Shown here: piece after piece, positions 1,652 to 63,730 of the stretch | Position numbering within the stretch: position 1 is the stretch's first letter | Layout: each line of letters begins with the position of its first letter | Assembly: GCA_910577795.1 (NCBI GenBank) | Contig: CAJTNW010000001.1 | Span: 20,752-84,751, forward strand | Origin: an uncultured Christensenella sp. | GTDB lineage: Bacteria; Bacillota; Clostridia; Christensenellales; UBA3700 | DNA: 64,000 bases | Direction: 5' to 3' | Translations under genes and position numbers: made by a program | The notes under the pieces: generated by a model | What the model saw: the letters and a program-made list of their open reading frames with translations, nothing else | What the model was told of the DNA's origin: nothing | Databases searched by the model: none

Positions 1652-1697
1652 ATCTTTCTTCCTCCTATGCAAAATATCTATCAAAAATCGGTATTAT

Positions 1698-2969
1698 TTA
1701 TCTTATTACCTCTAATGCTTGTTCTAAATCATTTATCAAATCGTAAGGGTTTTCAATTCCTACAGATAATCTTACTAAGTTTTCACTTATCCCGCAAGCA
1801 ACTAATTCCTCATTAGACAATTGTCTGTGTGTAGTAGTTGCCGGGTGCAAAACACAAGTTCTAGTATCTGCAATATGTGTGACAATTTTTATCAACTTTA
1901 ATGCTTTCATAAAATCACAAACTTGCTCTCTATCACCTTTAATTCCAAACACAACCATACCAGAATTCATACCACCAGTAAAATATTTCTGTGCATTATC
2001 ATAGTTTGAATCGCCTTCAAGTCCACTATATTTTACCCATTCAATTTTAGGATTTTTGCTTAAAGCCTTTGCACATAATAAAGCATTTTCGCTATGCTTT
2101 TGCATACGCAAATGTAATGTTTCAGCACCTAAATTTGTAAGGTATGCGTTAAATGGACTCATACAACTGCCCAAATCTCTCATCATTTGCACTCTTGCCT
2201 TAGTACTAAATGATGCAGGGGCTACACTTGTATAAACTAAACCATGATAACTTTCATCTGGCTCATTAAACTCTTTGTATCTTGGGTTACCTTTAAAATC
2301 AAAGTTGCCACCATCTACTATAATTCCACCAACACAACTAGCATGTCCATCTAAATATTTTGTTGTAGAATGAACAACAATATTTGCACCATGCTCAATT
2401 GGTCTACAAATAATTGGTGTAGCCAAAGTGTTGTCTACCATTAATAAAATACCAAAATCTTTTGCTATTTTGGATAAAAGTTCAAAATTTGCAATATTCA
2501 TATTAGGGTTTGCAAGTGTTTCGCAATAAATAATTTTTGTTTTATCGTCTATTACTTTTGCAATTTCGTCATAACTTGCGTTTGGCGAAACAAACCTTGT
2601 ATCTATACCATACTTTCTTAATGTAACATTAAACAAGTTAAATGTACCACCATAAATAGTTGCAAGGCTAATAATATTATCACCAGCATTGCAAACATTT
2701 AATATTGCAAGTGTTTCTGCAGCAAGCCCGCTAGAGCATGCAACAGCACCTACACCACCCTCCAAAGCATTAACTTTTGCCTCAAAAGCCGCAACTGTTG
2801 GGTTGCTTATTCTTGTATATATATGTCCATCTTCACTTAAATCAAATAATTTTGCAAGTTGTTCTGGAGTGTCATAAACATAAGTAGTTGATTGATACAA
2901 TGGCAATACTCTTGGTTCGCCATTTTTTGGCGCATAGCCTGCTTGCACACATTTTGTTTGAATATCCAT
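1698..2969 (-). CDS. metY: O-acetylhomoserine sulfhydrylase (PLP-dependent, Cys/Met metabolism family)
   Basis: 423 aa with the STTKYLDGH PLP-lysine region and family-typical N- and C-termini. It is in an operon with metA. Confidence 0.9.
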   Translation of the reverse strand: MDIQTKCVQAGYAPKNGEPRVLPLYQSTTYVYDTPEQLAKLFDLSEDGHIYTRISNPTVAAFEAKVNALEGGVGAVACSSGLAAETLAILNVCNAGDNIISLATIYGGTFNLFNVTLRKYGIDTRFVSPNASYDEIAKVIDDKTKIIYCETLANPNMNIANFELLSKIAKDFGILLMVDNTLATPIICRPIEHGANIVVHSTTKYLDGHASCVGGIIVDGGNFDFKGNPRYKEFNEPDESYHGLVYTSVAPASFSTKARVQMMRDLGSCMSPFNAYLTNLGAETLHLRMQKHSENALLCAKALSKNPKIEWVKYSGLEGDSNYDNAQKYFTGGMNSGMVVFGIKGDREQVCDFMKALKLIKIVTHIADTRTCVLHPATTTHRQLSNEELVACGISENLVRLSVGIENPYDLINDLEQALEVIR

Positions 2970-3032
2970 AATCTGCTCCTTTATTAATGTTGGTTTATTA
3001 GTTATAAATTATTTGCCTATAATTCTTTTACT

Positions 3033-3061
3033 ATTATATATTAAAAAACAATATTTTTCAA
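3033..3061 (-). promoter_or_regulatory. predicted sigma-A promoter of metY-metA (TTGAAA-17-TATAAT)
   Basis: The reverse strand reads TTGAAA (3061..3056), a 17-nt spacer, then TATAAT (3038..3033), about 65 nt upstream of the metY ATG. Confidence 0.4.
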
Positions 3062-8973: not shown

Positions 8974-10686
8974 TTACTCTTCAGGAGTTTCTGTTTCCTC
9001 ATTATTATCTGTTTCAGGAATTACAGGTTGTTGTTCGCCATTATTATCTGGAACTTCTGGCTTAGTTTGCTCACCATTATTATCTGGATTTTCTGTTTCT
9101 CCATCGCCATTGTCTGGTATTTCTGGTTGGTCAGGTTCTGTTTCCCCACCACCTGGAACTTCAATTTCTGTTAAAACTAAATCTACTTCAACTTCTTCTC
9201 CATTCTCATGACAAATAATTTTGATTTCAGATTTTTCATTTCCCCATTTATAAGGTCCACGTTTTACGACTTTATTCCATTGTTCTACGGTTCCAGTAAA
9301 ACTGAAATTAATAATAACATTTCCTGTTGGAATATCTTCGTCTGCCTCATTTTTAACTGTTTCAGGTTTTCCTGCTCTTCTAAAAGCACCTTCATCAATA
9401 GTGTCTAATGTTGCTGGCAATCCTACTTCAGTTAAATTTTTACATTCTTCAAAAGCAAATTTACCAATATATTTTACACCACCAAGAATACTAATTTGTT
9501 TTAACCCACTCAAAGCAAAAGCATAATCTTCTATTCTTGTTAAATTTTGATTTAAAGTAATGTCACTTAATTTTGAAGTTGAACTAAATGCTTTTTTACC
9601 TATTACTCTTAAACTACTTGGAATATTAATTTTATTTAAAGAAGTACATTTCTCAAAAGCACTTTCCTTAATTTCTGTAACAGGACCATTTAATTCAACA
9701 ACAGTTATACCAGTACAACCAAAGCATAATCCGTTGCTTACAGTTGTCAATTGTGATGACAAAATAATTTTTTTCATTTTAGTACAATTGTTAAACACAT
9801 AATCACCAAGAGAAGTAACTGTATCTGGAATTGTAATTATACTTTCAATTTTAGTTTGCTTATCTGTAGGCACATTAATTTTTTTATTAGATAAAACGAT
9901 TAGGTTTGTGCAACTATCAAAAGCCTCTTTACCAATTGAAATTGTATCCTCTGAAATTTGAAGATATTTTAAACCAGCACAACCTTGGAATGCTTGTTCG
10001 CTAATATCAGTAAGGCTATTTGGAAGAATTACATTTTCTAACTTAGTACATTTCCTAAATGCACCAATACCAATAGAAGTTAACTTGTCAGGAAACTTAA
10101 TATTTTCAAGTGCTGTAGTATCCGTAATAAAAGTAGAATTGCCCATTTTTTCTAATGCAGAACAATTCATAAAAGCAGAATCACCTATCCTTTCTAATGA
10201 AGAAGGGATTACAATAGTTGCTAAAGTATCACAACCTCTAAAAGCACCGTCACCAATAGTTGTTAAATTATTACCATTGATAATAACCTCTTGCAAAGCA
10301 TTAAATCTTGGATAATTAGTCTCTGACTGATGATATACAGAAAATACTCCACTAGCAATTTCCTTAACAGGCACACCATCAATATCATCATCAACTACTA
10401 CCTTATTATATTTTTCAGCAACTCTTGCATCTGTCAAAATATAATATGTACCATCACTGCTAAGTTCATAAACCAATCCAGAAGTAGGTTTTTCTTCTTT
10501 TTTTTCATCATTAACCTCTTCTTCAAATTCATTATCTAAATCAGGAATTGGTGTTTCAACTTGCACTGCGTTTTCATTTTCTTTTTCCGTATTACTTGCT
10601 GGGTCTTTGCACGCAACAAGGGTAAACACGGATAATGTCATAATAACTATTACAGCAATTAAAACAAACACTTTTTTCTTTGTCAT
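8974..10686 (-). CDS. BspA-type leucine-rich-repeat lipoprotein
   Basis: The start was moved to MTKKKVFVLIAVIVIMTLSVFTLVAC (lipobox LVAC, RBS GAGGGGAA). The body has many repeats of the I.IP.SVT.IG..AF..C..L type. The tail is acidic with PDNNGEQ repeats. Confidence 0.8.
   Translation of the reverse strand: MTKKKVFVLIAVIVIMTLSVFTLVACKDPASNTEKENENAVQVETPIPDLDNEFEEEVNDEKKEEKPTSGLVYELSSDGTYYILTDARVAEKYNKVVVDDDIDGVPVKEIASGVFSVYHQSETNYPRFNALQEVIINGNNLTTIGDGAFRGCDTLATIVIPSSLERIGDSAFMNCSALEKMGNSTFITDTTALENIKFPDKLTSIGIGAFRKCTKLENVILPNSLTDISEQAFQGCAGLKYLQISEDTISIGKEAFDSCTNLIVLSNKKINVPTDKQTKIESIITIPDTVTSLGDYVFNNCTKMKKIILSSQLTTVSNGLCFGCTGITVVELNGPVTEIKESAFEKCTSLNKINIPSSLRVIGKKAFSSTSKLSDITLNQNLTRIEDYAFALSGLKQISILGGVKYIGKFAFEECKNLTEVGLPATLDTIDEGAFRRAGKPETVKNEADEDIPTGNVIINFSFTGTVEQWNKVVKRGPYKWGNEKSEIKIICHENGEEVEVDLVLTEIEVPGGGETEPDQPEIPDNGDGETENPDNNGEQTKPEVPDNNGEQQPVIPETDNNEETETPEE
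8995..9135 (-). repeat. imperfect in-frame tandem repeats (about 33-42 nt) encoding the P-D-N-N-G-E-Q tail of the LRR protein
   Basis: CCATTATTATCTGG(A/T)... recurs at about 8999, 9039, 9074 and 9107. The repeats are coding, not a CRISPR array. Confidence 0.6.
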
Positions 10687-11092
10687 AACATTCCCCTCAA
10701 ATTTATAATAATTTGCTAAAACTTGCAAAATTTATCTTTTGCAAAGTAAAATCTAGTATCCTCTTAACCCATTTTTTTGATTTGGGGATACTTTGGTATT
10801 TACATTATATAATAAAAAAATTACAAAATCAATCTTTTTACATAAAATTTAACTTTACTCCCTATTTTAGTAAAAATCAGTCTAGCAACTTTCATTTTTT
10901 AGCCAGTTGTTGTCGCTTTATTTTATAAACCTTAAAAAAATATTTATTTGCTCAAATCTCTAAATATTTAATTGTATTCTTTTAACTTTTTCCAACAAAT
11001 TTACTCATATTTTTTAAATAATAGCGATTTTTGACACGTTTTTATAAAAAATAACAGTGCCTTAACACTGCTATTTTAAATTGTACTTTTTA

Positions 11093-13501: not shown

Positions 13502-13615
13502 TATATCCTCCCACTTTTTACTTTGCGTAAAACAACTGCTTGTACTTATTTGTCTTTAAAATTTAAATTAACTATTCAAAAATCGCTATTAAATCATTTT
13601 TTATTTAATATTCAA

Positions 13616-14965
13616 TTAATTTTTAGTCAACCTATTAATTATTTCTTCCTTTGTAGGAACTCTTCCATTTTGCAAAATCCATAACATAATTTTGCCAAGC
13701 AACTCGCCTACTTCCTTGCCACAATATCCTAAACTTAGCAAATCATTACCATTAATAGGCAAATCTTTTATAGTAAAAGGCATATTGTCATTTATCATTT
13801 TATTCTTTAAATCTATTAATTTTTGTGTGGCACTATCATCATAATTATTAGGATTAGTTGCCATACCATCTGCTCGCCTTAGCATTATAAAATCGTCAAA
13901 GTAATCTATATTGTCTGCAATAAAAACTCTGCATTTGGACATTCTTGTTTTTCCATCAACATTAAACATATGTATTTTAACAAGTCTACTTATTATTTGG
14001 GTGTCATTTTGAGAAAACTTAAGTCTTGTCAAAATATCCTTTGCCATATCGCTACCAACAATTTCGTGAGTATACATATTGCCATATTTATTATAAAGTT
14101 CCGCCTTTGCAATATCATGAAGCAACCCTGCCATCATTAATCTTGGAGGCAAATAATCTATAATTTTTAATGTGTGATTATAAACATCATACAAATGGTA
14201 CTTTGGATTTTGTGGCATACCTATCATTAAATTAATTTCAGGTATTATATATTCCATTGCACCAATATCCACTAACATTCTAATACCATCGCTAGGATTT
14301 ACACCATTGTTTTTGCTGTTATACTTAAAAACACCTTCAAAAATCGCTATTAATTCGTCTTTTATCCGCTCTTTAGATATATCTTTTAGCATAAACGAAT
14401 ACTTTTTTGCGTCCTTTAAAGTTTCAGTTTCTATACCAAAACCTAACTGCACATAAAACCTTACTAGCCTCATAATACGCAAAGCATCTTCACTTAAAGT
14501 AACATCACGCACAGCACGTAAAACTTTGTTATTAATATCTTGCACACCACCTACTAAATCTATAATTTTATTTTCAATTATGTCATAGTACAAAGCATTG
14601 CAAGTAAAATCTCGTCTTAAAGCATCTTCTTTTATGTTATCAGTAAAAATACATTTTGCTGGTTTATGGTCACCTTTTTTTAGTGGGTAACTATCCTGTC
14701 TAAAAGTAGTATATTCAAACTTAATATTATCCACCTTAATAACCAAAGTACCTGTCCTTTTGTAGGACGCAACAATTTTATAGTTAGTTCCCAAAAGCAA
14801 CTCCTCTACCTTTTGAGGAAGTAATTTGCTTGTAATATCATAATCGCTTACCGGATAGCCTAAAAGACTATTACGTACAGCGCCACCAACTATATACAAA
14901 GGTGCAAAAGGTTTAAATATTTCTGCTAGCCTAAAAAGGCTTTCTGGAATAATACTTTTTAACAT
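13616..14965 (-). CDS. cca: CCA-adding tRNA nucleotidyltransferase with HD domain
   Basis: Has GGAVRNSLLGYPVSDYDI (the PolyA_pol head) and an HD region (LLHDIAK). The track start at 14983 is a TTG, so I chose the ATG at 14965, which follows GGAGAG. Confidence 0.85.
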   Translation of the reverse strand: MLKSIIPESLFRLAEIFKPFAPLYIVGGAVRNSLLGYPVSDYDITSKLLPQKVEELLLGTNYKIVASYKRTGTLVIKVDNIKFEYTTFRQDSYPLKKGDHKPAKCIFTDNIKEDALRRDFTCNALYYDIIENKIIDLVGGVQDINNKVLRAVRDVTLSEDALRIMRLVRFYVQLGFGIETETLKDAKKYSFMLKDISKERIKDELIAIFEGVFKYNSKNNGVNPSDGIRMLVDIGAMEYIIPEINLMIGMPQNPKYHLYDVYNHTLKIIDYLPPRLMMAGLLHDIAKAELYNKYGNMYTHEIVGSDMAKDILTRLKFSQNDTQIISRLVKIHMFNVDGKTRMSKCRVFIADNIDYFDDFIMLRRADGMATNPNNYDDSATQKLIDLKNKMINDNMPFTIKDLPINGNDLLSLGYCGKEVGELLGKIMLWILQNGRVPTKEEIINRLTKN

Positions 14966-15556: not shown

Positions 15557-16876
15557 TTAATTGCTTATTAAATTAATTTTGTAAATCTTTTTACTTGTAT
15601 CAAGCAGTTTTGCTTTTTCTGCTATCTCTACCCCACACACGCAAAGTATGTCATTACCATTTGCAATAACGGGCAGCCTATCCCTAAACCTAAGTGGTAC
15701 TTTTTTATCAGTCAAAAAATCACCCAAACTTTTACTGCCACCACCAAACTTTGCTATCCTATCGCCATTTTGCCTTTGCCTAATAACAAGACTATCTAAA
15801 TCAAAATCATCTACTGCAATATACAAAGTTTTGTTTATTCCTGCACTATCATTTAAATTGTTTTTGCAAAAATCATTAACCTTTTGCACTACTAATTCAA
15901 ACCCACTTATTTCAAAAAATCCCTCTGAAAATCGGTATTTTACTATAGGATAATCATTTTTTTTGGTAATTACTACTCCATCTTTTTCTTTATACACAGT
16001 AGTGTTATACGGCATATCTAAACTGCCCATTTTGCCACATACAGCAAAGTCAATTATGCTTTTTATATGCCTTTCCTCAATATCCGCAACCACACCTAAA
16101 AGGCTAAAACCCCTTCGTATCATTTCCGCTTGTATGACAATATGTCTACCTTTTAAGTCGCAGTAAACACCATCATTTTCTAAACACAATGCAGGAGTAT
16201 TTTGGTCAATAAAATCCGCTATCTCTTTTGCTCTTTCGGCTAACTTGATTAAATTTTTATCAATTGCAGGATAAACTTTTTTTATACTAGGCAATATTTG
16301 ATTACGGATAAAATTGCGGCTATAATTATTGTCCTTATTTGTACTATCCTCGCAAAACTCTATTTTATTTTTATCAACATACTCCAAAATTTCTTGTTTA
16401 GTAGTAAAAAGCAAAGGTCTTAAAATATGCCCATCTTCAACAGACATACCTTGTAAGCCATCAATGCCCGTACCCCTTGCAATGTGCATAAACACACTTT
16501 CCGCTTGGTCTTGTGCATGGTGAGCCGTTGCCACTGCACTAGCATACTGTTGCACTGCAGCCTCAAAAATTTTATGCCTTAATATACGTGCAGCCTGCTC
16601 TATTGTATAGCCGTTTTCTTTTGCAAAGCCAATTGCATCTACATCATATTTTTTTAACTCTATACCATACTTATCCGCATAGCATTTTACAAAATCGCTA
16701 TCTCGTCTGCTTTCTTCCCCTCTAATATGATGGTCTATGTTAATAATCAAAAAACTATCTTTGGGGCGATTTTGCCTAAACCACTCCAGCATAGCCATAC
16801 TATCTACCCCACCACTTACCGCAAGTGCAATAACAGGATATGTATTTATAATAGAAACAATATGCGATTTTATCAT
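15557..16876 (-). CDS. tilS: tRNA(Ile)-lysidine synthetase
   Basis: PP-loop motif AVSGGVDSMAM at the N-terminus. 439 aa. Shows tilS-hpt synteny. Confidence 0.9.
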   Translation of the reverse strand: MIKSHIVSIINTYPVIALAVSGGVDSMAMLEWFRQNRPKDSFLIINIDHHIRGEESRRDSDFVKCYADKYGIELKKYDVDAIGFAKENGYTIEQAARILRHKIFEAAVQQYASAVATAHHAQDQAESVFMHIARGTGIDGLQGMSVEDGHILRPLLFTTKQEILEYVDKNKIEFCEDSTNKDNNYSRNFIRNQILPSIKKVYPAIDKNLIKLAERAKEIADFIDQNTPALCLENDGVYCDLKGRHIVIQAEMIRRGFSLLGVVADIEERHIKSIIDFAVCGKMGSLDMPYNTTVYKEKDGVVITKKNDYPIVKYRFSEGFFEISGFELVVQKVNDFCKNNLNDSAGINKTLYIAVDDFDLDSLVIRQRQNGDRIAKFGGGSKSLGDFLTDKKVPLRFRDRLPVIANGNDILCVCGVEIAEKAKLLDTSKKIYKINLISN

Positions 16877-24399: not shown

Positions 24400-24485
24400 T
24401 TTTATTAAATATCTCCAACTGATATAAATAAATAATATCATTAAATCTTTTATAAGTCAATATTGATTTATTTTTAAAACAGACA

Positions 24486-44793: not shown

Positions 44794-44818
44794 AAAATAG
44801 TACCGATTTTCGTATTGT

Positions 44819-48047: not shown

Positions 48048-48076
48048 ACGAAAATCGCTATTATTGCGATTTTTTT
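48048..48076 (+). terminator. weak terminator after lepB, built from an inverted pair of the AAAATCGC word
   Basis: AAAATCGC, then TATTATT, then GCGATTTT, followed by TTTTG. Confidence 0.4.
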
Positions 48077-48436
48077 GTTTTTATTTGCATACTTTTGCTT
48101 GATTTATTGATTATGTAACATTGTTTTCCTCAATTGTTTTTGTAATACTAAGTTTTATAAAACCATTGTATAATGACAAATACTGCTCTTTATCATACCA
48201 AACCATCGCTCTATTTGAATTTTTGTAGTTTAACAAAAGTAAAAATATTAAATTTTTGCAATATTCCATATATTACCATTTAGCCAAAATTATACTTAAA
48301 TTGTGTTTTTTATCATACTAATGACGATTTTTGAAATGAAATTTAAAATTTTTTTGTTGAATTTATTGTATAGTTGACAAATAAACAGATTTTTCCAAAT
48401 GAATTTAAAAAATTTTGTTTTATCATTATTCAGTCA

Positions 48437-48466
48437 TTGACAATAGCATAATTAATGTGTTATACT
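48437..48466 (+). promoter_or_regulatory. predicted promoter of plsY (TTGACA-18-TATACT)
   Basis: TTGACA at 48437-48442 and TATACT at 48461-48466. Confidence 0.35.
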
Positions 48467-49165: not shown

Positions 49166-52100
49166 ATGAGTGGACAATTTAGTAAAAATAACTTTGAACA
49201 AAATCCTTCAAATTTGAAAAAAAAGCGCAATAATAAGAGTTGGGCAACTAATGACGACTCTTCTCTTTGCGATGACGAGATTTTGAACGAAAAAGAAATA
49301 AAAGCAATTAAAGAGGATAAGTGGGTAGAAAAACACGTTCCAAAGCCTACAAAAAAGGAGTTAAAATACAAACGCCGCATAAACGAACTTGAGGCTAGCA
49401 GTTTAAAAGCACCTTTATCTAAAAAGGAAAGCAAGGAACTTAAAAAACTTAACAAAAAATACAAAAAACTATACAACTATCGTCATAGAGACCTTTCAAG
49501 CAACCACACCACTCTAAAATGTTGCTTGAGCGCTATTGTAGTTGTAGTTGTTCTTGTTTGCACTGTAGTATTTGGTGGATATCACTTTGTTGTTCAACCT
49601 TATACTGGTGTTACTTTGTTTGAATTAACAGATATTTTGGGCGGACTATACAAAGCAGATGAAGAAAAACTTATTACTCAAAAGTTTGACCCTGTTAAAG
49701 ATGCAGATGCTTTCTTTATCAGTTTGCAAAACGCACTATATCTTGATAGAAAATTTACTTTAGACGATTTATTACACCTAATTCCATCAAGTGCTGGTGG
49801 TACTGGTGATGAGTCTGCGTCTGTTGCAGATTTGCTTGATTTGGCTGGCGAACCAGTAGCAGATGGCAATGGTAGTATTACAGGTAGTCCTTATTTTGAC
49901 GAATTACTTTCTGAAACAAAATTTGACTTCTCTACTTTAAAAGATTATGATGGCAGCAAAAAAGTTTGGGAAATAAGTGACAAAATGGTTGCTGCTATTA
50001 TGCAACAAGTTGTTTTGAGTGCAGATTCTATTCCTCAAATAAAAGATTTGCTTGGTGAGTATAATATTTCAATTAAGGACAGCCTTGTTGTTAGACAATG
50101 CTTAATTAAAAAGAATAATTCTGACGAAACAACTATGCAATTGACTATTCAAGTAAAAATTCGCACTTTAGTTGATGGTATTTTGAGTGGTATGGACCTT
50201 GGTTCTCTTGCATTTATTAAATCAATAGTTCCAGTACTTTTACCTGAACATATTTATTTAAGTGCAGTTACTACTCCACTTGTTGACAAAGCACCAACTC
50301 TTGGAATTAACTCTATAAATGATAAAAGTTTGCAAACTTTAATTAGTACTTTGGATAAAAAACTTTTGGAAGGTAAAATTGAAAGTACTTTCAACTCTAT
50401 TGGTAAATCTATCTTCAGTACATTCAAAAGCATTACAGAAATGGTTGGTGGTGATGGATTAACAATTGCACCATCTGAATTTGATGATGTTAATGGAGTT
50501 GGTACTATTAAGTTGGATATACTACAAACTGCTATGAAAACTATGAAAGTCGAAAATGTTTCTTCTAGCGATTTCTTGCTAATGGTTAAACATTTACATA
50601 GTGTTGATAACAATTATAAAGATGCAGATGCTTATATTGATAGCAATGTTACTAAACCAACTAGTCCAGAAGATTTTATCACTTCAAAAGATGCTTTATT
50701 TGAATCTTATGGTATACCAAAAGACCAAGTTTCTGATATTACTGCAGAAAACTTCCTTGATAAAATTGACACTATTCCTCAGTTAATCAATATTAAGGAT
50801 TCAAAAATAGGTGAAGTTGAATTATATAAAATTAGCAATGATGAGTTAAAGAAAAAATCCGTTCTTTCTGATAAAGCACTTGCTCAGATTATGAATAATA
50901 TGATAACTGGCAAGTTAGGCGATGATATCAAAATGAATATTCTTGAACTAGATATGGGCACAACAGAAATGAGAATAATTGCTCAACTTGATGTTTCTGC
51001 TATGATAGACAAGCAATTAGGCGGACAATTTGGTGCTCTAAAACCATTGATATCTTCTATCTTCCCTAACAATATGTTTATTAAAATCATAATTCCTAAT
51101 GAGAAAAAAGCCGATGGTTCTTCTTGCAACGTTATATTTAACTATACAAAAGACGGCTCTTCTCAAGAAGAAAGTGACAAAATGTTTGAAACAATTGCTG
51201 CTTTAATGGGAAGTATTAACGGCGAAGGTGGCAATAATGCTTTTAATAAAGAAACACTTATTAAAAAACTTGACGATGCTATCTACCCTATTTTAGATAA
51301 CTTTAAGGGCGATAACGCAGATATGCCAATAAGTTTTGCAGATGGCTGCCTACAACTTCCAACAATTTATGAAGTACTTGCAACAACAATAAACGAAGGT
51401 TCTTCTGAAACTGATAAATTGTCTCCAGATACTATTCAGGAAACAATGGAAAGTTATTACACTTATGATGAAACAACAACTAAGTTTGACCCTGTTTTTG
51501 GTACAATTATTAACAATGTAGAAAAAACTAAGTTAGATGACTTTATTAGTCGTGAGTTGCAAAATAAATTCTTTATTGCAGGCGAAATTGACGAAAACGA
51601 TGTTTATACAACAATGACTACTATAGGCACTAAACTTGACCCAGCAAATATTGATGGTGCTATTAACCTAAAAGGCTTAAAATCAAACACTATTGATGCT
51701 GACAAAATGAATTTGTCTATAACCTCTTTGGAACTTGCAAAACTTATTATTCAAAGTGGTCAAATAGATAGCATTGGTGATATAGGTTTTTACAAAAACT
51801 TCACATTTGTTGATATGAGTGTAAATAAAGATACTAATACTTTATCATTAGTAATTGCTGGTAACCTTGACTCTAGTTCTTCTACTATTACAAATGGTAT
51901 AAAAATAGAAAACTTTGCTGCTGACTACCTAGTAGTACAAGCCGATGTAAACTTAAGCGACTACACTACTAAAGTAAAAATCAACAATGCAAATGATGAT
52001 AATATTAATACTTTATTAAAGATTATTAATAAACTTACAGGCTCAACTTCAGGCAACTTTGATGCGGATAGTGTTGGAGAAAATATTGGTAATGCAATAG

Positions 52101-53080
52101 AAGAAGCATTTACAACCTTTGCTAATCAAGGAATGCCTTTGACTGCTAGCAATAAAGTTGTTGATACTCCAATTAATGGTAAACAAGACGGCTTTACAAG
52201 TAATAATATTTATAGATTAATTACAGAAAAATCTACCGGTAAAGACAACTACATAAGTGGTGATGACCAATTATTAAATAGTATTATTTACAAACTAAAT
52301 AATCTTCCTGGTCAAACACATAGTTCTGATGGTACTCACACAACTTCATTTACTGAGAGAGTTGCGGACCCACTTGTATTTAAAGACGATGGCACTGGCA
52401 AATTCCTTGCAGATGGTAAGTTCACTAAACCGGGCTCTGACAAAGAATATAGTTTGATTAATTTGGACACAGATACTAATCAATTATATGTGTTTGACTA
52501 CTACATCGGACAACAAGTTAAGGCTCATGCAGATACTGATACAATGGAACTTATTAAATTTGTAATTATGCCTAATACTCGTAACGAAGTTTATGCTCAA
52601 TTTGTTAAAGACTTAGACTTATCAAGAGATGTTGCTCCTGATGACTTAGTAGCAAATGCTGGAGATAATGGTATTGTATTCCTACAATTCAAAATAAATA
52701 GTTCTGAAATTGGTGGTAATGAACTTACTAATAAAATACTACCAGAGAGTATTTATGGCGGTGCATTTATTGACTTTAATACTCCTCTTGCAACTGACGT
52801 TAGACCATTTATTAATAACTTAACTCAAGAAGAAGTTAATTATATTAATAGATTAATTCAAGGCAATGATACTGCTCCATCAACAAATATTACTGATAAG
52901 TTTAATAATTTGATTGACACTGTTAAAGGTGCTACATTTACAATTGGCGATGATACAACAACTTTAACTTTCTCTGATTTATTCGCTAAATTTACATTGG
53001 ATAGTGCTGGTGGTAATATTGATTTAGCAAATATTTGTATTGGTAGATTTGTTAAAAATATGACTGCTCCAACAGTATAA
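49166..53080 (+). CDS. large orphan type-II membrane protein (1304 aa)
   Basis: AAGGAG lies inside the plsY 3' end, with only 3 nt between the genes. A K-rich ~115-aa cytoplasmic head is followed by a single TM helix (CCLSAIVVVVVLVCTVVFGG) and a ~1150-aa D/N/T/S-rich ectodomain. I recognise no domain or sorting signal. Confidence 0.6.
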   Translation: MSGQFSKNNFEQNPSNLKKKRNNKSWATNDDSSLCDDEILNEKEIKAIKEDKWVEKHVPKPTKKELKYKRRINELEASSLKAPLSKKESKELKKLNKKYKKLYNYRHRDLSSNHTTLKCCLSAIVVVVVLVCTVVFGGYHFVVQPYTGVTLFELTDILGGLYKADEEKLITQKFDPVKDADAFFISLQNALYLDRKFTLDDLLHLIPSSAGGTGDESASVADLLDLAGEPVADGNGSITGSPYFDELLSETKFDFSTLKDYDGSKKVWEISDKMVAAIMQQVVLSADSIPQIKDLLGEYNISIKDSLVVRQCLIKKNNSDETTMQLTIQVKIRTLVDGILSGMDLGSLAFIKSIVPVLLPEHIYLSAVTTPLVDKAPTLGINSINDKSLQTLISTLDKKLLEGKIESTFNSIGKSIFSTFKSITEMVGGDGLTIAPSEFDDVNGVGTIKLDILQTAMKTMKVENVSSSDFLLMVKHLHSVDNNYKDADAYIDSNVTKPTSPEDFITSKDALFESYGIPKDQVSDITAENFLDKIDTIPQLINIKDSKIGEVELYKISNDELKKKSVLSDKALAQIMNNMITGKLGDDIKMNILELDMGTTEMRIIAQLDVSAMIDKQLGGQFGALKPLISSIFPNNMFIKIIIPNEKKADGSSCNVIFNYTKDGSSQEESDKMFETIAALMGSINGEGGNNAFNKETLIKKLDDAIYPILDNFKGDNADMPISFADGCLQLPTIYEVLATTINEGSSETDKLSPDTIQETMESYYTYDETTTKFDPVFGTIINNVEKTKLDDFISRELQNKFFIAGEIDENDVYTTMTTIGTKLDPANIDGAINLKGLKSNTIDADKMNLSITSLELAKLIIQSGQIDSIGDIGFYKNFTFVDMSVNKDTNTLSLVIAGNLDSSSSTITNGIKIENFAADYLVVQADVNLSDYTTKVKINNANDDNINTLLKIINKLTGSTSGNFDADSVGENIGNAIEEAFTTFANQGMPLTASNKVVDTPINGKQDGFTSNNIYRLITEKSTGKDNYISGDDQLLNSIIYKLNNLPGQTHSSDGTHTTSFTERVADPLVFKDDGTGKFLADGKFTKPGSDKEYSLINLDTDTNQLYVFDYYIGQQVKAHADTDTMELIKFVIMPNTRNEVYAQFVKDLDLSRDVAPDDLVANAGDNGIVFLQFKINSSEIGGNELTNKILPESIYGGAFIDFNTPLATDVRPFINNLTQEEVNYINRLIQGNDTAPSTNITDKFNNLIDTVKGATFTIGDDTTTLTFSDLFAKFTLDSAGGNIDLANICIGRFVKNMTAPTV

Positions 53081-54016: not shown

Positions 54017-54169
54017 ATTTCACCTTGTTTGTAGTGTTATATTATTTATTTCATTTTACCACAATATTTTAAAATTGTTATCAATTTTTTTTATTTTTAT
54101 TAAATTAAATTTTTAGTTTATAATAAATATTGCTAAAAAATCAAAATAATATCGATTTTTGTTAGGAAT

Positions 54170-54206
54170 ATTAAAAAATGGTTGCTATTTTGCAACCATT
54201 TTTTAG
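54170..54206 (-). terminator. terminator hairpin after gyrA
   Basis: AATGGTTGC (54177-54185) pairs with GCAACCATT (54192-54200), with a minus-strand T-run from the plus-strand A-run at 54173-54178. Confidence 0.6.
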
Positions 54207-54215: not shown

Positions 54216-56798
54216 TTATTCCTCTGTCACATTATTGTTTTCTTGCACTGCTGTATTTTCATTTTCTGCTACTTCCACAACACTATCTTCGCTTGCCTCG
54301 CCATCTAGTACTTGTTCTGCTGGCTCTTCCTCACTACGCGGTACAATAGTAAATGAAACAACTTTGCTACCCTCGTCTTTAAGTCTCATTAGTTTAACAC
54401 CTTGAGTATTTCTTCCTATTTTGCTAATAGAATCTGCGTTAAGTCTAATTACTACTCCGTTATCCGCTAATATCATAACGTCTTCATCACTAGATACTAG
54501 TTTTAGGTTAACAACATTACCAGTTTTTTCGTTTAGCACACCAACTTTTATGCCTTTACCACCACGTGCTTGGAACCTATACTCGTCAATATCTGTCCTC
54601 TTTCCGTAGCCGTTTTCTGTAATTGTCAAAACGTCTGTATTTTCGCGAACTATAGTAGCATCAACCACAAACTCGCCTTTATCCAAACTTATTGATTTTA
54701 CACCCATAGAAGACCTTCCAGTGTCACGTATATCTTGTTCATGGAATCTTATGCACTTACCACCAGTAGATGCAATGATAATCTCATTATCGCCGTCAGT
54801 GTGCATTGCACAAATAAGTTCGTCACCCTCCTGCAATTTAATAGCAATTTTACCATTGCTTTGGATACGTTCAAATTCTGACAAATCTGTCTTTTTGATT
54901 AAGCCTTTTTTAGTTGCAAGCACTAAATAGCCCATACTTCCTGTTGCAAGTGGCAAAATAGCATTTATTCTTTCGCCATCTGCTAAGTTTAATAAGTTAA
55001 CCATAGCACGTCCTTTTGCTGTTTTAGAGCCTTCAGGAATCATATATGCTTTTAGTCTGTAAACCTTACCAAAGTTAGAGAAGAATAAAATTGGTTCATG
55101 TGTGTTAGAATTAAATACATTTTCCACAAAATCTTCATCTTTTGCTTTATGTGCAGTAACACCAACACCGCCACGACGTTGTGCTTTATACTCGTCTGTA
55201 GCCATTCTCTTTATATAGCCTTGGTGAGTAAGACTAATAACTATATCTTCTTGCTCAATTAAATCTTCAATATCAATATCGTTATAGTCATAACTTAACT
55301 CACTTCTTCTTGGAGTATTGTATTTTTCTTTAATCTCAAGCATTTCTGTCTTGATAATTTCTTCTACTCTATGAGGGTTTGCTAAAATATCTTGATATTC
55401 TGTAATGTCTCTTTCTAGTTGTGCCAAGTTTTGTTCTAACTTATCTATTTCCAAATGAGTAAGTCTTTGTAACCTCATTTCCAAAATAGCATTGGCTTGT
55501 TTATCTGATAAAGCAAAAGCCTCCATCAATTTATTAGATGCGTCAACCTTGTCTTCAGATTTTTTGATAATTGCAACAACTTCGTCAATATTATTTAGTG
55601 CAATTACTAAACCTTTTAAAATATGCTCTCTTTCTAATGCTTTTTCCAAATCATATTGAGTTCTTCTTATTATAACTTGTTTTTGATGCTCAATATATGC
55701 AGACAAAATCTCCTTTAAATTCATAACTTTTGGAGTACCATCTATAAGTGCAAGCAAAATAATGCTGTTGCTTATTTGCAAACTTGTATGCTTGTACAAC
55801 ATATTTAATACAACTTGAGCCTGTGCATCTTTTTTAACATCAATAACAATTCTCATACCATCACGGTCAGACTGTTCTTGAATATCGCTTATGCCGTCAA
55901 TTTTCTTTTGTTTTACATAGTCAGCAATAGTCTCTATCAACTTTGCTTTGTTTACTTGATAAGGCAATTCTGTAATAACTATTCTTTGTCTTGAGCCATT
56001 ATTAAAATCTTCTATTTCTGCTCTAGCACGAAGTATAGCATTACCTTTACCTGTTCTGTAAGCCTTTTTAATACCACTTCTGCCCATTATCAAAGCACCT
56101 GTTGGATAATCTGGTGCAGGAATTAAATCAATAAGTTCCTCAATATCCATTTCTGGATTTTCCATAAGTGCAATTGTACCATCAATAACCTCACCTAGAT
56201 TATGTGGTGGAATAGATGTTGCCATACCAACCGCAATACCATCGCTACCATTAACCAAAAGGTTAGGATATCTTGCCGGCAATACTACTGGTTGCATTAA
56301 TGTATCATCAAAGTTAGGATAGTAATCAACAGTCTTTTTGTCAATATCCCTAATCATTTCTGCAGCAATTTTACTCATTCTTGCCTCAGTGTAACGTTGT
56401 GCTGCTGGAGGGTCTCCATCCACACTACCAAAGTTACCATGACCATCAACTAATGGACAACGAATAGAAAAGTCTTGTGCAAGTCTTACTAATGCCTCAT
56501 AAACTGCTGTATCGCCATGAGGGTGATATTTACCCAAAACGTCACCTACGATACGTGCACATTTACGATATGGCTTGTCTGAAGTTAATCCTAATTCGCT
56601 CATAGCATACAAAATACGTCTATGTACTGGTTTTAGACCATCACGAACATCTGGAATAGCACGTGATACATTTACTGCCATTGCATAAGCAATAAATGAT
56701 TTTTTCATTTCATGTTCAATATTTATCTTTTTTATATTAGATTTATCAAGCATTTCAGATAAATCTTGTGCTTGTTTTTCCTTTTCTTTTTCTGACAT
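54216..56798 (-). CDS. gyrA: DNA gyrase subunit A
   Basis: 860 aa with [23 protein letters not shown] and the active-site region ..RYTEARM... The C-terminal beta-pinwheel is followed by an acidic tail. Confidence 0.98.
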
Positions 56799-56807
56799 AA
56801 CTCCTCC

Positions 56808-58709
56808 TTACACGTCAAGTTCGCCTGCTAAAGTAGCATTTTGCTCAATAAATTGTCTTCTAAGTTCTGGCTCGTCACCCATAAGCATTGTAAATACTTG
56901 GTCTGCATCTTTTGCCTCTTCCATACTTACTTGCAATAGAGTTCTTGTTTCTGGGTTCATTGTTGTTTCCCACAATTGCTCCGCATTCATTTCGCCCAAA
57001 CCTTTATATCTTTGCAATTCGCCCTTACGGTCTATACTTTGCATATACTCTTCCAATGACTCGTCATCGTAAAAATATTTTTCGTTTTTACCACCTCTTG
57101 AAACTTTATATAGTGGTGGTTGTGCTGCGTATACGTGACCTTGTTCAAGCACTGGACGCATATATCTATAAAAGAAAGTTAACAATAAAATTCTTATATG
57201 GCTACCATCTACATCAGCATCTGTCATACAAATAATTCTGTCATATCTAAGTTTAGAAACATCGCAGTCCTCTAATATTCCGCAACCAAAGGCTGTTATC
57301 ATATTTTTAATTTCTTCACTTTCCAAAACTTTATTAAGTCTAACTTTTTCAACATTAAGGATTTTACCTCTAAGTGGCATAATCGCTTGAAATCTTCTAT
57401 CTCTACCTTGTTTTGCAGTACCGCCCGCTGAGTCACCCTCAACAAGATATACTTCGCAAAGTTTACTATTTTTTTCTGTACAATCAGCCAATTTACCAGG
57501 AAGAGTTGTAGATTCCAAGAAAGACTTTCTTTTTGTCAAATCTCTTGCGTTTCTTGCCGCCTCTCTTGCCTTTTTAGCAGTAATAGAGCGAAGTACTAAG
57601 TCTTTAGTTATCTTAGGATTTTCTTCCAAGAAAGAACCAAAAGATTCAGACACAGCATCTGCAACAACCTTACGCATAAAACTATTGCCTAGTTTTGTTT
57701 TTGTTTGACCTTCAAATTGTGGGTCTGTTAGTTTTACACTTACAACTGCAACCAAACCTTCACGGCAGTCATCACCACTTAATTTTTCGTCATTTTTCAA
57801 AATATTAAGAGTTTTGCCATAGTCGTTAAACAATTTTGTTATAGTGTTTTTAAAACCATCAACATGAGTACCACCCTCTTCAGTATGAATGTTGTTAGCA
57901 TAAGAATATATATTTTCGCTATAAGAATCATTATATTGCAAAGCAATTTCTACTTGATAATCGTCTGCCATAATGCTCATATAATAAGGCTCTGCAAGCA
58001 ATGCATCTTTTTTATTTAACTCATTAACATATTCTTTAATTCCACCTTCATAATGAATAAAGTCTTCTTGCTCTTTGCCCTCACGGCTATCTTTTAAAGT
58101 AATTTTTAAACCTTTATTTAAAAAAGCAAGTTCTTTTAATCTATGCAATAATCTAGGGTACTGAAACTCCACTGTTTCAAAAATTGTATCGTCTGGCATA
58201 AATACAATTTTAGTACCAGTTTTATCAGTTTCGCCAACAACTTTTAACGCAGTTTGAGCAACACCTCTATTATATGTTTGGTGGAATTTTTTACCATTTT
58301 GGCAAACTTCAACATCTAACCACTCAGACAAAGCATTAACCGCAGATATACCTACACCATGCAAACCACCAGAAAACTTGTAGCCACCGCCACCAAATTT
58401 ACCACCAGCATGCAATTTAGTCAAAACTACCTCAACAGCAGATTTACCTTCCTTTTCAATGATACCGGTAGGGATACCTCTACCATTATCTTCAACAGAA
58501 ATTGCACCATCTTTAGTGATTTCTACATTAATCAAATTACAGTATCCAGCCATTGCCTCGTCAATACTATTGTCAACAACCTCAATAACCAAATGATGCA
58601 ACCCGCGCTCGTCTGTAGAGCCAATATACATACCTGGTCTTTTACGAACTGGTTCTAATCCTTCAAGCACTTGTATAGCAGATTGGTCATAATTTTTTTG
58701 CTCGCTCAT
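56808..58709 (-). CDS. gyrB: DNA gyrase subunit B
   Basis: 633 aa with the GHKL ATPase ([30 protein letters not shown]), the Toprim motif [12 protein letters not shown], and PLRGKILN. Confidence 0.98.
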
Positions 58710-60904: not shown

Positions 60905-61113
60905 CAATTAAAAATCTAACTTTCAGATGCAATTTTGTATTTGAAGGTATTTTTATGCAATTTTATTAATTAATGAAAAAATAATTATATATTTTTAATA
61001 TTATCATAATAAAAATTGCTTAAAAATTAAAGAACCGCTCAAAAATCGCGGGTAATTAATATTTTGTACAAAAATTATACTAAAATAAATTTTCTTTTTT
61101 CTTGGGAGGAATT

Positions 61114-63615
61114 ATGAAAGAAAAAATTCAAAAAGGGTTTTTAACTCTACGAAAATACTGGTCAAGACCTCAAAAAGGACAATTTGTCGCATACAAGGAA
61201 ATTGCCGGTTTTAGTGTTGGTGGAATGGGTGTAAAATCTTTTGCCTCATTGGTATCATTTATGAACTTGGCTGCAACCTGTTTATTTACAGCAGTCGTTT
61301 ATGGATTATCGCCTAATGAGATTATGATACTATTCCTTATCACCAATGTAGGTGTCGGTGTGCTTAAAACTCCTATTATCAGTTGGCTACAGGATAGAAC
61401 AAACACCCCTATCGGAAAGTTTAGGCCATACTTGATTTGGGCAGGCATACCTTGCGTGCTTGCAGTTATTGGACTAACTTGGCTTGTTCCTATTCCGGGT
61501 TGGATATTGCCTGCAGGTCAACCTAACAAAGCATTAACCATGACTATGCTTTGTATATTCTTAAACATTCTTATTATTGCGCAACAATTATTAAATAATG
61601 CTTATATGGGTATTTCGCAAACAATAAGTCCACTATCATCTGAGCGAACAAAAATAATGGGCTTTTCTGAATTTCTTGGTAATCTTGGACCAAGTATAAT
61701 TCAAGCCGCACTGCCAATTTGTGGTTTGTGCTTTGCCACTAAAGAAAATGCAATGACTAACGTATGGACTTATCGTGTATTTATGCCTATATTTGCAATA
61801 ATCGGTTTTGGTTTAGGCTTGATAGTTTTATATACATCAAAAGAGCGTACAACTAATACCGACTCTATGGAAAATATTAAGACTAAAGAGACCAAAGAAA
61901 ACAAACTTAGTTTCTTTACAAGTTTAAAACTTCTTAGTAAAAATAAAGAGTTCTGGCTTGTAACAATAAGCAAATTTTTTGATGGATTTAAAGGATGGCT
62001 TACATTGCTATTACCTTGGATTTGTGCCTTTCAATTGCGAGACACTGCTATTCAAGGTGTTGTTCAAACAATTGTAAGTTTTGGGTTTACTCCAGGAATT
62101 ATTCTTGCTCCACTTTTAATAAAATGGCTAGGCAGTCGTGGTTCAGGTGTAATATTCCACGCACTAAATGCTGCCGCTGCTCTTTTAATGCTATTTACAT
62201 ATAAAAGCGGTGTTGTTGTGATGCTTATATGTTTGTTCCTATACAACTTTGCATTAGGTCCACAATACATTATTCAAAACACTATTATGTCCGATGGTTT
62301 TGACTTTCAACAAGATAGGGACAACGTCCGCCTAGAAGGATTTGCTCAAAACTTCCAATTAATGATTTCTACTTTAGGTACTGTTGCCTCTACTCTAGCA
62401 TTTACTATAATATGTAATAAATATAATGTAGGCACAGTCACTAATGCTAACGCAGATTACAGTATGCTTATTGACCCAGCAATTAGAAATCCTTTTTATG
62501 GTGATTTAATATTACTTGTTGTAATTGCAAGTTTACTTGCTGCAATTCCTTTTATATTTGTTACATTAAACAGAAACAAAATGACCATTATAAGAGAAAA
62601 TTTGGATAGAAAAAAAGTTATTGCTGACAATCATCTAGAAAATGCTACTCCTGAACAAATTGAAGAAGCATACAACAACTTCCTTGCTGCAAAAGAGGCT
62701 GAAAGACAAGCAGAAATTGCTTTGGCAGAAAAAGAAAAAGCCAAAATTGCAGAAAATCAAAACGAAGAAACTCTTGCAAGCATAGTTGCAGAACAAAAGG
62801 CTTTGAGTGCAAGAAAAAAAGTTTTTGTTGCAGAATGGAAAGTAAAAGCAACTGCAGAACATGAAGAAATTGTTGCTGCAGCAAAAAAAGAAATTGAAAA
62901 TGCAAAATCTACTTACACTCAAAAAATTAATGATTATAAAAAATTATTATCTGACAAAGAACTTGTTGATAAATATAAAACTGATGCTATTCAAATAAAA
63001 ATTGACTGCGACGAAAAAATTAAAAATTACAGGTCCGAAAAAGAAAATAAACTTATTGCAGAAACTGCTCGTTTTGAAGAAGATAAAGTAAAAATTGCTA
63101 GTTTAAAAGCAGAACTTGTGACTATTAAGACTGAACATAAAGTTAAACTTAATGATTATAAAGATAATTATAACAAAACAACTAAACCAGAACTAGATAG
63201 TTTAAATAACAAACTTAAAGTCACAACTGACAAGACTGCAAAAGAAGAATTAATTAAAGAGATAAAAAATACTAAAAAAGCAGCAAAAGTTGAAAAACGT
63301 GATATTATTAAAGAATATAAAACTAAAAAATATGAAATTATTAACAATATCGACCGTCTGTCTTTTGCTCATTCTTCTGCAATTAGTCAAATATCAGTTG
63401 AGTTTAATAAGCAAATGGATGCTATAGAAAAAGAAAAACGCAATGCTAATAAACTAAAAGCAATGAAAAAAGAGATAATCCAAAACAAAAAAACTGTTAT
63501 TGCTGAGGCTAAACACAAATCACAAAGTATTAAACTATGGCTAAATGTTTTGGCTAATGAGGCTTTTGCAAAACTTATTACAGAAGAAACTTTAAATTCT
63601 GTTACTACCGAATAA
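61114..63615 (+). CDS. GPH-like sugar transporter fused to a ~340-aa K/E-rich coiled-coil C-terminal region
   Basis: The ATG at 61114 follows GGGAGGA. The GPH-like loop is QDRTNTPIGKFRPYL, with about 12 TM helices. From about residue 500 the sequence is hydrophilic with heptad-like repeats to the end. Confidence 0.7.
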   Translation: MKEKIQKGFLTLRKYWSRPQKGQFVAYKEIAGFSVGGMGVKSFASLVSFMNLAATCLFTAVVYGLSPNEIMILFLITNVGVGVLKTPIISWLQDRTNTPIGKFRPYLIWAGIPCVLAVIGLTWLVPIPGWILPAGQPNKALTMTMLCIFLNILIIAQQLLNNAYMGISQTISPLSSERTKIMGFSEFLGNLGPSIIQAALPICGLCFATKENAMTNVWTYRVFMPIFAIIGFGLGLIVLYTSKERTTNTDSMENIKTKETKENKLSFFTSLKLLSKNKEFWLVTISKFFDGFKGWLTLLLPWICAFQLRDTAIQGVVQTIVSFGFTPGIILAPLLIKWLGSRGSGVIFHALNAAAALLMLFTYKSGVVVMLICLFLYNFALGPQYIIQNTIMSDGFDFQQDRDNVRLEGFAQNFQLMISTLGTVASTLAFTIICNKYNVGTVTNANADYSMLIDPAIRNPFYGDLILLVVIASLLAAIPFIFVTLNRNKMTIIRENLDRKKVIADNHLENATPEQIEEAYNNFLAAKEAERQAEIALAEKEKAKIAENQNEETLASIVAEQKALSARKKVFVAEWKVKATAEHEEIVAAAKKEIENAKSTYTQKINDYKKLLSDKELVDKYKTDAIQIKIDCDEKIKNYRSEKENKLIAETARFEEDKVKIASLKAELVTIKTEHKVKLNDYKDNYNKTTKPELDSLNNKLKVTTDKTAKEELIKEIKNTKKAAKVEKRDIIKEYKTKKYEIINNIDRLSFAHSSAISQISVEFNKQMDAIEKEKRNANKLKAMKKEIIQNKKTVIAEAKHKSQSIKLWLNVLANEAFAKLITEETLNSVTTE

Positions 63616-63730
63616 TTATAATTAGAGTTGCATATTGTGAATTGGCTATATCTCTAGTACTTCACTACTGCAACTCTTTTAATTTGGTATAAAAATATGA
63701 AAAATCCGCACGAAAATCGACCTAAAAAAT

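Follow-up and report, generated by a model that had tools for sequence, protein, structure and literature searches.

What maintains a short, AT-rich DNA word at many scattered places of one bacterial chromosome? The question is raised by a 64,000-nt stretch of contig CAJTNW010000001.1 (assembly GCA_910577795.1, positions 20,752–84,751 of the forward strand) from an uncultured Christensenella sp., hereafter called the window, in which the 10-nt word TCAAAAATCG recurs on both strands. A first, sequence-only reading had noticed the word and offered as candidates a site for a global regulator or nucleoid protein, an uptake-signal-like sequence, or another genome-maintenance signal. Our analysis makes it highly probable that this is a real, maintained and clade-specific recognition word and that it is neither a regulatory nor a mobile element. 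As for its mechanism, we tentatively put forward, by analogy, a DNA uptake signal of the type found in Pasteurellaceae (uptake signal sequence, USS) and Neisseriaceae (DNA uptake sequence, DUS). The window has a G+C content of 31%, and SpoIIE, TilS and Hpt are among the Firmicute genes in it; a 21-kb portion matches part of a mouse-gut metagenome contig at 99.96% identity.

The word is over-represented and forms discrete sites

Counted on both strands of the window, TCAAAAATCG occurs eight times, compared with 0.14 occurrences expected from dinucleotide shuffles and 0.13 expected under a third-order Markov model, an excess of about 60-fold for a 10-mer. When all 8- to 12-mers of the window were scanned without bias, it was the top over-represented 10-mer (Bonferroni P ~2e-6), and AAAATCGGTA, AAAATCGCTA and other words that overlap it likewise headed the scan. 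The over-representation proposed from the letters is thus real within the window, where the ratio of observed to third-order Markov counts lies far above 1. The eight coordinates first listed for TCAAAAATCG were exact; the count of six given for AAAATCGGTAT was one too high, since it occurs five times and it is the 10-mer AAAATCGGTA that occurs six times. The degenerate form AAAATCGSTA has 12 perfect copies, and perfect and one-mismatch copies together amount to 29 versus 14.9 expected; the excess is made up almost wholly of perfect copies, with single-mismatch copies near background.

We then applied to the window a position weight matrix that had been built solely from related-genome loci, with a cut-off of at least 15 bits. 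The matrix found 16 discrete sites, versus 0.06 expected in Markov-3 simulations, a density of about one per 4 kb. The score distribution is bimodal: the next best match in the window scores 8.2 bits and nothing lies between 8.2 and 15. The motif carries about 25.6 bits of information, where 13 bits would suffice to specify 16 sites in 128 kb. Coding sequence makes up 87% of the window, yet 12 sites are intergenic (binomial P ~2e-8 by our own arithmetic); seven sites are on the plus and nine on the minus strand, so that the description of the word as mostly intergenic and in both orientations holds. Motif sites contain 18 of the 68 intergenic CpGs of the window.

The 12 copies that the sequence-only reading had ranked as best or variant were all recovered by the matrix. 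Its six looser copies fared unevenly: those at 48048 and 54147 are genuine, those at 16691, 43355 and 6151 score below 0 bits, and that at 63710 is marginal (7.5 bits). Two genuine copies are additions to its list, one at 25504 and one inside dus at 31102, both on the minus strand. The 16 sites are as follows.

1681–1696, plus strand: perfect copy TCAAAAATCGGTATTA at an operon junction, between the stop of a Cys/Met-metabolism gene (1698) and the start of the HTS gene; 31.4 bits.
11019–11034, minus strand: perfect copy TCAAAAATCGCTATTA, 12 nt past the proS terminator hairpin (a terminator spanning −40 to −16 as counted from the motif); 30.7 bits.
13576–13591, plus strand: perfect copy in the spacer between cca and the PHP gene; 29.3 bits.
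14337–14352, plus strand: perfect copy inside cca, antisense, encoding ELIAIFEG with the rare Ala codon GCG; 27.1 bits.
15925–15940, plus strand: variant CTGAAAATCGGTATTT inside tilS, antisense, encoding YRFSEGFF with the rare Arg codon CGA; 18.5 bits.
25504–25519, minus strand: weak copy TCAAAAATGGATAGTA in the convergent spacer after a ypsA-like gene; 16.5 bits.
26369–26384, minus strand: TTGAAAATCGGTATTA, between the stop of the iPGM gene and the start of a cupin gene; 23.4 bits.
31102–31117, minus strand: CTAAAAATCGCTACTA inside dus, sense; 22.4 bits.
32126–32141, minus strand: variant GCGAAAATCGGTATGG inside mazG, sense; 19.6 bits.
34797–34812, minus strand: TCAAAAATCGAGGTTA at the junction of spoVT and the flippase gene; 24.4 bits.
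40958–40973, plus strand: perfect and the best of all copies, between the convergent stops of an HTH gene and ftsH, followed by a bidirectional terminator (40980–41005); 33.6 bits.
44798–44813, minus strand: ACGAAAATCGGTACTA, filling the 25-nt junction between a small gene and a radical-SAM gene; 24.2 bits.
48048–48063, plus strand: ACGAAAATCGCTATTA, which together with the partial inverted copy GCGATTTTT (48065–48074) makes the lepB terminator hairpin; 22.3 bits.
48319–48334, minus strand: weak copy TCAAAAATCGTCATTA, about 100 nt upstream of, and separate from, the plsY sigma-A promoter; 16.4 bits.
54147–54162, minus strand: ACAAAAATCGATATTA, just past the gyrA terminator (54171–54206); 24.2 bits.
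61039–61054, plus strand: weak copy TCAAAAATCGCGGGTA, between a melibiase-like gene and an MFS transporter gene; 15.6 bits.

The word is the core of an asymmetric motif

Comparison of the motif-bearing related genomes showed that the word is the core of an asymmetric motif of about 28 bp, aaAaAACCntTCAAAAATCG[G/C]TATTAaaT, in which an A-tract and CC precede the core and AAT follows it. The flanks had been described as not conserved; this is correct beyond about 28 bp, where the surrounding sequences are unrelated, and incorrect for the short 5′ A-tract with CC and the 3′ AAT, which are kept. Two to three A/T tracts, spaced by about one helical turn, surround an invariant AAAATCG in the motif, in which no internal dyad was found. 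A hairpin inside the motif (ACC..GGT) was considered and rejected, because the ACC and GGT/GCT segments show no covariation with the G/C variant. The word exists in lineage variants, TCAAAAATCG..TATTA versus nCGAAAATCG..TACTA.

Copies keep their position across species and are missing from close neighbors

Regions L177 to L185, from other metagenome assemblies, were fetched through their ProRS and FtsH homologs, a route that is independent of the motif. Their relation to the window and the window copies that they share are given below.

L183, L184 and L185: FtsH identity 88%, 84% and 82%, respectively; nucleotide identity 68–79% for most genes.
L183 and L184, orthologous copies: 31102, 32126, 34797, 40958, 44798 and 48048 in both; 48319 in L184 only.
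L185, orthologous copies: 44798 and 48048 (two of four mappable sites).
L181 and L182: ProRS identity 94% and 91%; gene nucleotide identity 64–82%; copies 14337 and 15925 in both, 13576 in L181.
L177 and L178: ProRS identity 89% and 85%; gene nucleotide identity 63–76%; none of five testable sites, and no copy in 43 kb.

Window sites are thus kept at the same position and in the same orientation in six of seven cases in L183 and in seven of seven in L184, and three of four and two of four sites are kept in L181 and L182, respectively. L183 to L185 together hold 17 sites in 67 kb, which is the density of the window. L177 and L178 have the same gene order as the window and carry no copy at all, for which P is ~2e-5 at one copy per 4 kb; the spacer that holds the 1681 copy is absent from both. 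L179, which is not syntenic (ProRS 81%), has two perfect copies in 21 kb.

Individual sites show how closely position is held. The copy at 40958 is kept after ftsH in L183, and also in L184, where the HTH gene is missing, and the orthologs of the 44798 copy in L183, L184 and L185 score 31–35 bits. The copy at 34797 lies upstream of the called start of the flippase gene and is therefore intergenic in the window, not inside that gene as first described; in L183 it lies inside the called gene. The copy at 13576 is the ortholog of one inside the 5′ end of L181 rmuC; in the window rmuC has been deleted and the copy kept. In the lepB–plsY spacer of L183 and L184 the terminator copy is 82–85% identical versus 43–53% for the rest of the spacer, and the promoter is 86–87% identical; the weaker copy in that spacer (48319) is just 65–71% identical, has an ortholog in L184 only and is degenerate in L183 and L185. 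The same spacer in L185 lacks the contrast seen in L183 and L184 (motif 68%, rest 68%). Judged from these alignments, one set of lineages maintains the copies, by selection or drive, and its close neighbors lack them.

The same regions gave several further observations. rmuC lies between cca and the PHP gene in L177 (7697–9115), L178 (7626–9083) and L181 (7566–9086) and has been lost from the window and L182; the short cca–PHP spacer that remains in the window after this loss (13502–13615) still holds a motif copy. L182 has a G+C content of 46% versus 31% in the window, a large compositional shift despite 91% ProRS identity, and in it the coding motif copies are kept and no intergenic copy is present in 14 kb. 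Genes for LRR_5 (BspA-like) surface proteins come and go between species, for example after proS or purC (window 8974–10728 and 37347–39308; L181 11770–13287; L182 9057–10511; L185 18626–20014), and mark the variable spots of an otherwise syntenic region.

Copies inside genes arose by substitution

Two coding sites, in cca (14337) and tilS (15925), could be compared with motif-free orthologs, and both align to these without gaps. The cca codons read ELIAIFEG in the window versus ELVKIIKA or ELLAILFA in L177/L178, and the tilS codons read YRFSEGFF versus YPFSEGEF or IPFGEGMY, the tilS copy thereby entailing changes of P to R and E to F. The changes in the coding copies sit at variable residues. 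The codons that the word demands are rare in the window, where GCG makes up 7.3% of Ala codons and CGA 5.5% of Arg codons. Gap-free alignment, rare codons and variable residues together indicate that these copies were written in by substitution, against codon preference, and not by insertion. A gap analysis of the same kind was used to show that USSs are not insertions (PMC1626085, PMC2817400). The absence of indels relative to the orthologs also bears out the initial description of a short word as opposed to a miniature inverted-repeat transposable element (MITE).

The word is probably genome-wide and restricted to one clade

Among the matches listed for species-representative genomes, several hits with unrelated flanks were found only in mouse-gut metagenome-assembled genomes (MAGs) labeled Christensenella, Christensenellaceae or Clostridia, the genes of which are 66–71% identical to those of the window where they can be aligned. 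Besides the copy by which each locus was selected, these MAG loci contain at least 15 further sites in 104 kb, and metagenome loci contain 18 further sites in 204 kb. By comparison, 96 unrelated genome loci (711 kb, among the matches listed) contain at most one weak second hit (L114). In the viral contigs scanned (257 kb), 28 hits stood alone, as if by chance, and one contig had a weak second hit; we found no evidence there that phages carry the word.

Only two of the 41 motif-bearing loci of other genomes share any homolog with the window, and the largest genes beside the motif in relatives are as varied as dnaK/dnaJ, ffh, rny, rho, carB, glmM, polA, dnaE, uvrB, uvrC, recJ, recD2, fusA and thiC. 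These varied neighbors and the few homologous loci indicate that the word is spread around the chromosome and is not a local feature; it is probably genome-wide, as far as these sequences reach. An origin-proximal centromere was considered as the sole explanation and rejected, as 39 of the 41 loci are not homologous to the window. Six of the 30 largest motif-adjacent genes are DNA repair or replication genes (uvrC, polA, uvrB, dnaE, recJ and recD2, in L124, L133, L143, L146, L147 and L086), which recalls the genome-maintenance bias reported for DUS and USS, in a sample that is small and biased by the choice of the largest open reading frame (ORF).

The 16-mer TCAAAAATCG[G/C]TATTA also occurs inside multi-copy repeats of a Desulfobacteraceae MAG, S08.Bin136 (L005, L029, L038, L042, L061 and L071), and of a Eubacterium MAG (L063 and L066). 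In both, at least 40 nt of flank is conserved on each side of the 16-mer; these are true repeats that share the word by unrelated coincidence. A literature search for the word returned no paper containing it.

Placement relative to genes, terminators and replication

We sorted about 70 copies, taken from the window and from related genomes, by their placement relative to flanking ORFs. With respect to flanking genes, 15 are co-directional and 14 anti-directional, eight lie in convergent and three in divergent spacers. In tandem spacers the median distance, by our reading, is ~27 nt to the upstream stop versus ~153 nt to the next start. Copies thus favor the 3′ ends of genes and convergent spacers, and some fill operon junctions (1681 and 44798). 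The global regulator that had been proposed fits poorly into this picture, in which copies are randomly oriented relative to genes, lie nearer to stops and occur inside operon junctions, and in which the plsY promoter is a separate conserved block (48437–48466, TTGACA-18-TATACT with an upstream TG) ~100 nt from the motif.

Some copies stand before or after terminators, at a variable distance. The word forms a stem arm of a terminator at lepB (48050–48074), in the L131/L134/L147 locus and in L006, which amounts to ~4 of 70 copies (~6%). At lepB, the terminator had been described as an inverted pair; it indeed consists of the word and a partial inverted copy, and the hairpin is conserved in four species. 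A reading of the motif as a terminator module was rejected, since a hairpin lies within 90 nt of just 19 of the 70 copies and its position varies. A scan of the whole window against Rfam 15 gave no match at the gathering score.

GC skew is negative along the whole window, which is thus a single replichore, and on it the sites show no strand skew (seven plus, nine minus). This disposes of a polar genome-maintenance signal such as Chi or KOPS (FtsK orienting polar sequences), one kind of the maintenance signal first suggested. In Bacillus, gyrB/gyrA, the spoIIE-tilS-hpt set and ftsH are origin-proximal. The window carries gyrB-gyrA (54216–58709), spoVT-flippase-mazG, spoIIE-tilS-hpt and ftsH, all on the minus strand, and its GC skew of about −0.2 fades to −0.05 beyond 48 kb; the replication origin is probably no more than some tens of kb away and would be to the right.

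Other features of the window

Directly upstream of an LRR_5 surface-protein gene (start 39308, minus strand), positions 39318–39500 hold two copies of a near-perfect palindrome of 28–38 nt, TGTCAGnAAAnGTATACTTTTTCTGACA, 135 bp apart, which look like operators of a dimeric regulator or arms of an invertible segment. Three other words are more frequent than expected: TATCCCCA with nine sites (e.g., 5319, 11164 and 47775) versus 1.1, CTTTGGATA with ten sites versus 1.3, and the Fur/PerR-box-like TTAATGATTATA with five (30228, 38354, 40496, 62927 and 63149) versus 0.09; none of these excesses survives multiple-test correction. DnaA boxes with at most one mismatch number 32 in the window versus 23.6 expected, which is not significant. 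Conserved proteins without a Pfam domain are encoded beside plsY (1304 aa) and beside DUF951/lepB (553 aa), together with others of 303, 464 and 267 aa (regions 49166–53080, 45542–47203, 35491–36402 and 22247–24441); the genes for the 1304-aa and 553-aa proteins are syntenic in L183 and L184. After the ortholog of the gene beside the 61039 copy, L054 has a copy at the equivalent place, in a spacer alignment too diverged to prove orthology.

Several further identifications of the motif were tried and dropped. An inverton formed by the inverted pair 48048/48319 does not agree with a second copy that is degenerate in L183 and L185 and with a promoter outside the pair, and integron-like cassettes do not agree with inserted genes that are not flanked by paired copies. 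Compared by eye with consensus sequences, the motif fits none of cre, CodY, Spo0A, CtsR, IHF, hix, SigB/D/E/F/G/H/K/W and sigma-54; the PurR box, likewise judged by eye, matches at 11 of 13 positions for the G variant only, which is no fit.

Discussion

Four explanations other than an uptake signal have to be weighed. An operator or promoter of a global regulator or alternative sigma factor would account for the several copies 5–130 nt upstream of starts (26369, 34797, 44798 and 61039). One sigma-factor model is sigma-I of Clostridia and Bacilli, whose promoters combine an A-tract (−35) with a CGWA −10 element (PMC10575876); the motif has an A-tract, CC and CGGTA, and its AAAAAyC direct repeat ~12 bp apart may resemble response-regulator sites. 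However, CGSTA does not match CGWA, the 12-nt spacing from A-tract to CG is short, and the orientation and location of the copies are incompatible with promoters: about half oppose the flanking genes, eight are convergent, and others sit inside genes or in 25-nt operon junctions. The neighboring genes have no common function, the one canonical promoter nearby (plsY) is a separate block, and the scores are bimodal and not graded. We consider such a regulatory site improbable. It is very improbable that the copies are relics of a miniature mobile element or of its ends, or that gene cassettes attach or recombine at them, even though copies do stand at the borders of interspecies indels (an LRR gene inserted by 11019, rmuC lost at 13576, and Fic, ABC and GH2 genes inserted around the ftsH 3′ copy) and the identical 16-mer occurs in true repeats with conserved flanks in the Desulfobacteraceae and Eubacterium MAGs. 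In the present clade the flanks beyond ~28 bp are unrelated, coding copies show no indel relative to their orthologs, inserted genes are not surrounded by paired copies, and there are no target-site duplications and no associated transposase; moreover, copies conserved amid spacer that has decayed to 43–53% identity are not neutral relics. Hardest of all to credit is a polar chromosome-maintenance word or an RNA element such as a 3′-untranslated-region or terminator module. Chi (AddAB/RecBCD), KOPS (FtsK) and the SpoIIIE recognition sequence (SRS) are also genome-wide over-represented oligomers, read by DNA-processing motors, and the present word is likewise over-represented in coding and non-coding DNA, with some copies adjoining terminators. 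Those polar words are, however, 5–8 nt long, mostly coding and co-oriented with replication, whereas the motif spans 16–28 bp, is mostly intergenic and is split seven to nine between the strands of a single replichore. Copies are oriented at random with respect to transcription, so that the word is not confined to one RNA strand, and the RNA reading further lacks an Rfam match, a hairpin within the motif and ACC–GGT/GCT covariation. Taken together, there is strong evidence that the word is not a MITE relic, a promoter or operator, an RNA element or a polar word, and what remains is a recognized DNA word that is maintained genome-wide.

Such a word could also be the binding site of an abundant architectural or nucleoid protein (IHF-like, ParB/Noc-like, or a sporulation organizer) that anchors or bends the chromosome about every 4 kb and has no link to uptake. 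This explanation, which we regard as unlikely on balance though as the main rival, accounts as well as an uptake signal does for the site-by-site conservation, in which individual sites, including intergenic ones and ones that depart from consensus, keep their position and orientation across species. A long asymmetric motif with phased A-tracts is typical of bent-DNA sites, the copies are independent of gene orientation, and the organism is a spore-former (SpoIIE, SpoVT). A comparison can be drawn with Enterobacteria, where repetitive extragenic palindromes (REPs), bacterial interspersed mosaic elements (BIMEs) and the IHF-binding repetitive palindromic elements (RIPs) are short, interspersed, extragenic and clade-specific, lie at gene 3′ ends and in convergent spacers, and are bound by architectural proteins (gyrase, IHF), whose counterpart here is putative. 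REPs differ in being imperfect palindromes that form hairpins and are mobilized by REP-associated tyrosine transposases (RAYTs), whereas the present motif is not palindromic, occurs also inside genes without indels and is positionally conserved across species. Against an architectural site stand an information content about twice what a binding site of this frequency needs, and the complete lack of the word in the syntenic L177 and L178, a loss that would be surprising for an essential architectural system. We identified no candidate protein, and the sites that nucleoid proteins are known to bind are degenerate or palindromic. Among the candidates of the sequence-only reading, the uptake-signal-like word and the nucleoid-protein site stay viable, the regulator is disfavored and the polar maintenance word is excluded.

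Among well-understood classes of sequence, just the uptake signals of Pasteurellaceae and Neisseriaceae combine these properties. The USSs of Pasteurellaceae, of the Hin-type AAGTGCGGT or the Apl-type ACAAGCGGT, each with two AT-rich flanking segments, resemble the motif in fold excess (23–175-fold for USS 9-mers, PMC1626085, versus ~60-fold for the 10-mer here), in lacking orientation bias, in copies that arise by substitution and at poorly conserved residues, in stable orthologous positions, in subclade-specific variants and in a short core with A/T tracts about one helical turn apart. A few copies pair with a partial inverted copy in terminators, a use known from USS and DUS (PMC1852404) and far rarer here. 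The core AAAATCGGT matches the family-wide USS consensus ANNNGCGGT at eight of nine positions, a resemblance that is probably coincidence. In USSs the A/T tracts are found on the 3′ side of the core; here most of them are on its 5′ side, and the conserved core is longer (16 bp). The DUSs of Neisseriaceae (AT-GCCGTCTGAA and its dialects, with the ComP receptor) are similar in being mostly intergenic, near gene 3′ ends and terminators, in having lineage dialects and no strand bias, and in being retained across species; they differ in being GC-rich, in lacking flanking motifs and in forming terminator stems.

On the model of an uptake signal, a sequence-specific protein would recognize the motif as double-stranded DNA, and selection or a copy-independent drive would keep it in one clade of uncultured gut Clostridia (labeled Christensenellales). 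The copies would not regulate their neighbors; they would be gained by point substitution where they do least harm, that is, just after stops, in convergent spacers, at operon junctions and at variable protein residues, and would then be long retained. A component of the DNA-uptake or recombination machinery would prefer DNA that bears the word, and word-bearing fragments from conspecifics would replace wordless alleles, so that copies would be both created and preserved throughout the genome. The related genera that lack the word would either have lost this specificity or never have acquired it, and an AT-rich signal of 16–28 bp would imply a new kind of receptor in the Gram-positive envelope. 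Both the binding of a protein to the word and DNA uptake as a process are steps that we infer by analogy.

Several points weigh against this model. Uptake sequences are known only in Pasteurellaceae and Neisseriaceae (PMC1626085). The host is a Gram-positive spore-former without an outer membrane, a Firmicute (SpoIIE and SpoVT in the window, GerA in relatives) outside the range of USS and DUS. To our knowledge, sequence-specific DNA uptake is known in no Firmicute. No competence genes were seen in the window or in the other available sequence, which comprises partial genomes. At ~1 per 4 kb, the density is 3–4 times below the ~1 per kb of classic USS and DUS, and the sole comparable density is that of Haemophilus ducreyi, a case of decayed USS with 199 per 1.76 Mb (PMC1626085). 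A quarter of the copies are coding and 75% intergenic, versus 34–65% coding in USS and DUS genomes (PMC2817400), and ~4 of 70 copies lie inside terminator hairpins versus roughly half of DUS and USS. Conservation between species extends to site-specific deviations from the consensus, such as GGTACTA at 44798 and GGTATGG in mazG, which agrees with selection acting site by site at least as well as with drive toward a consensus. Finally, the whole case is built from sequence.

Sequence-biased DNA uptake is textbook knowledge for just two Gram-negative families, and whether it exists elsewhere, and whether drive or selection maintains its signals, are long-standing questions; in Firmicutes an uptake signal would be unprecedented. 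To these questions the present work brings a defined 28-bp candidate in abundant, uncultured gut Firmicutes and a natural contrast between closely syntenic genera, with about one copy per 4 kb or none, which makes it directly testable. It is with considerable doubt that we raise the further prospect of a clade of gut spore-forming Clostridia that has a true uptake signal, which would be the first self tag for transformation outside Proteobacteria. If the word is instead an architectural site, a motif conserved between species at orthologous coding and non-coding positions and overriding codon preference would amount to an unrecognized layer of chromosome function in the clade. The word is in addition a practical taxonomic and binning marker for these MAGs. 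Either way, these comparisons point to something undescribed, which would be a variant uptake signal in a phylum new to that class or else a novel word that a protein binds throughout the genome.

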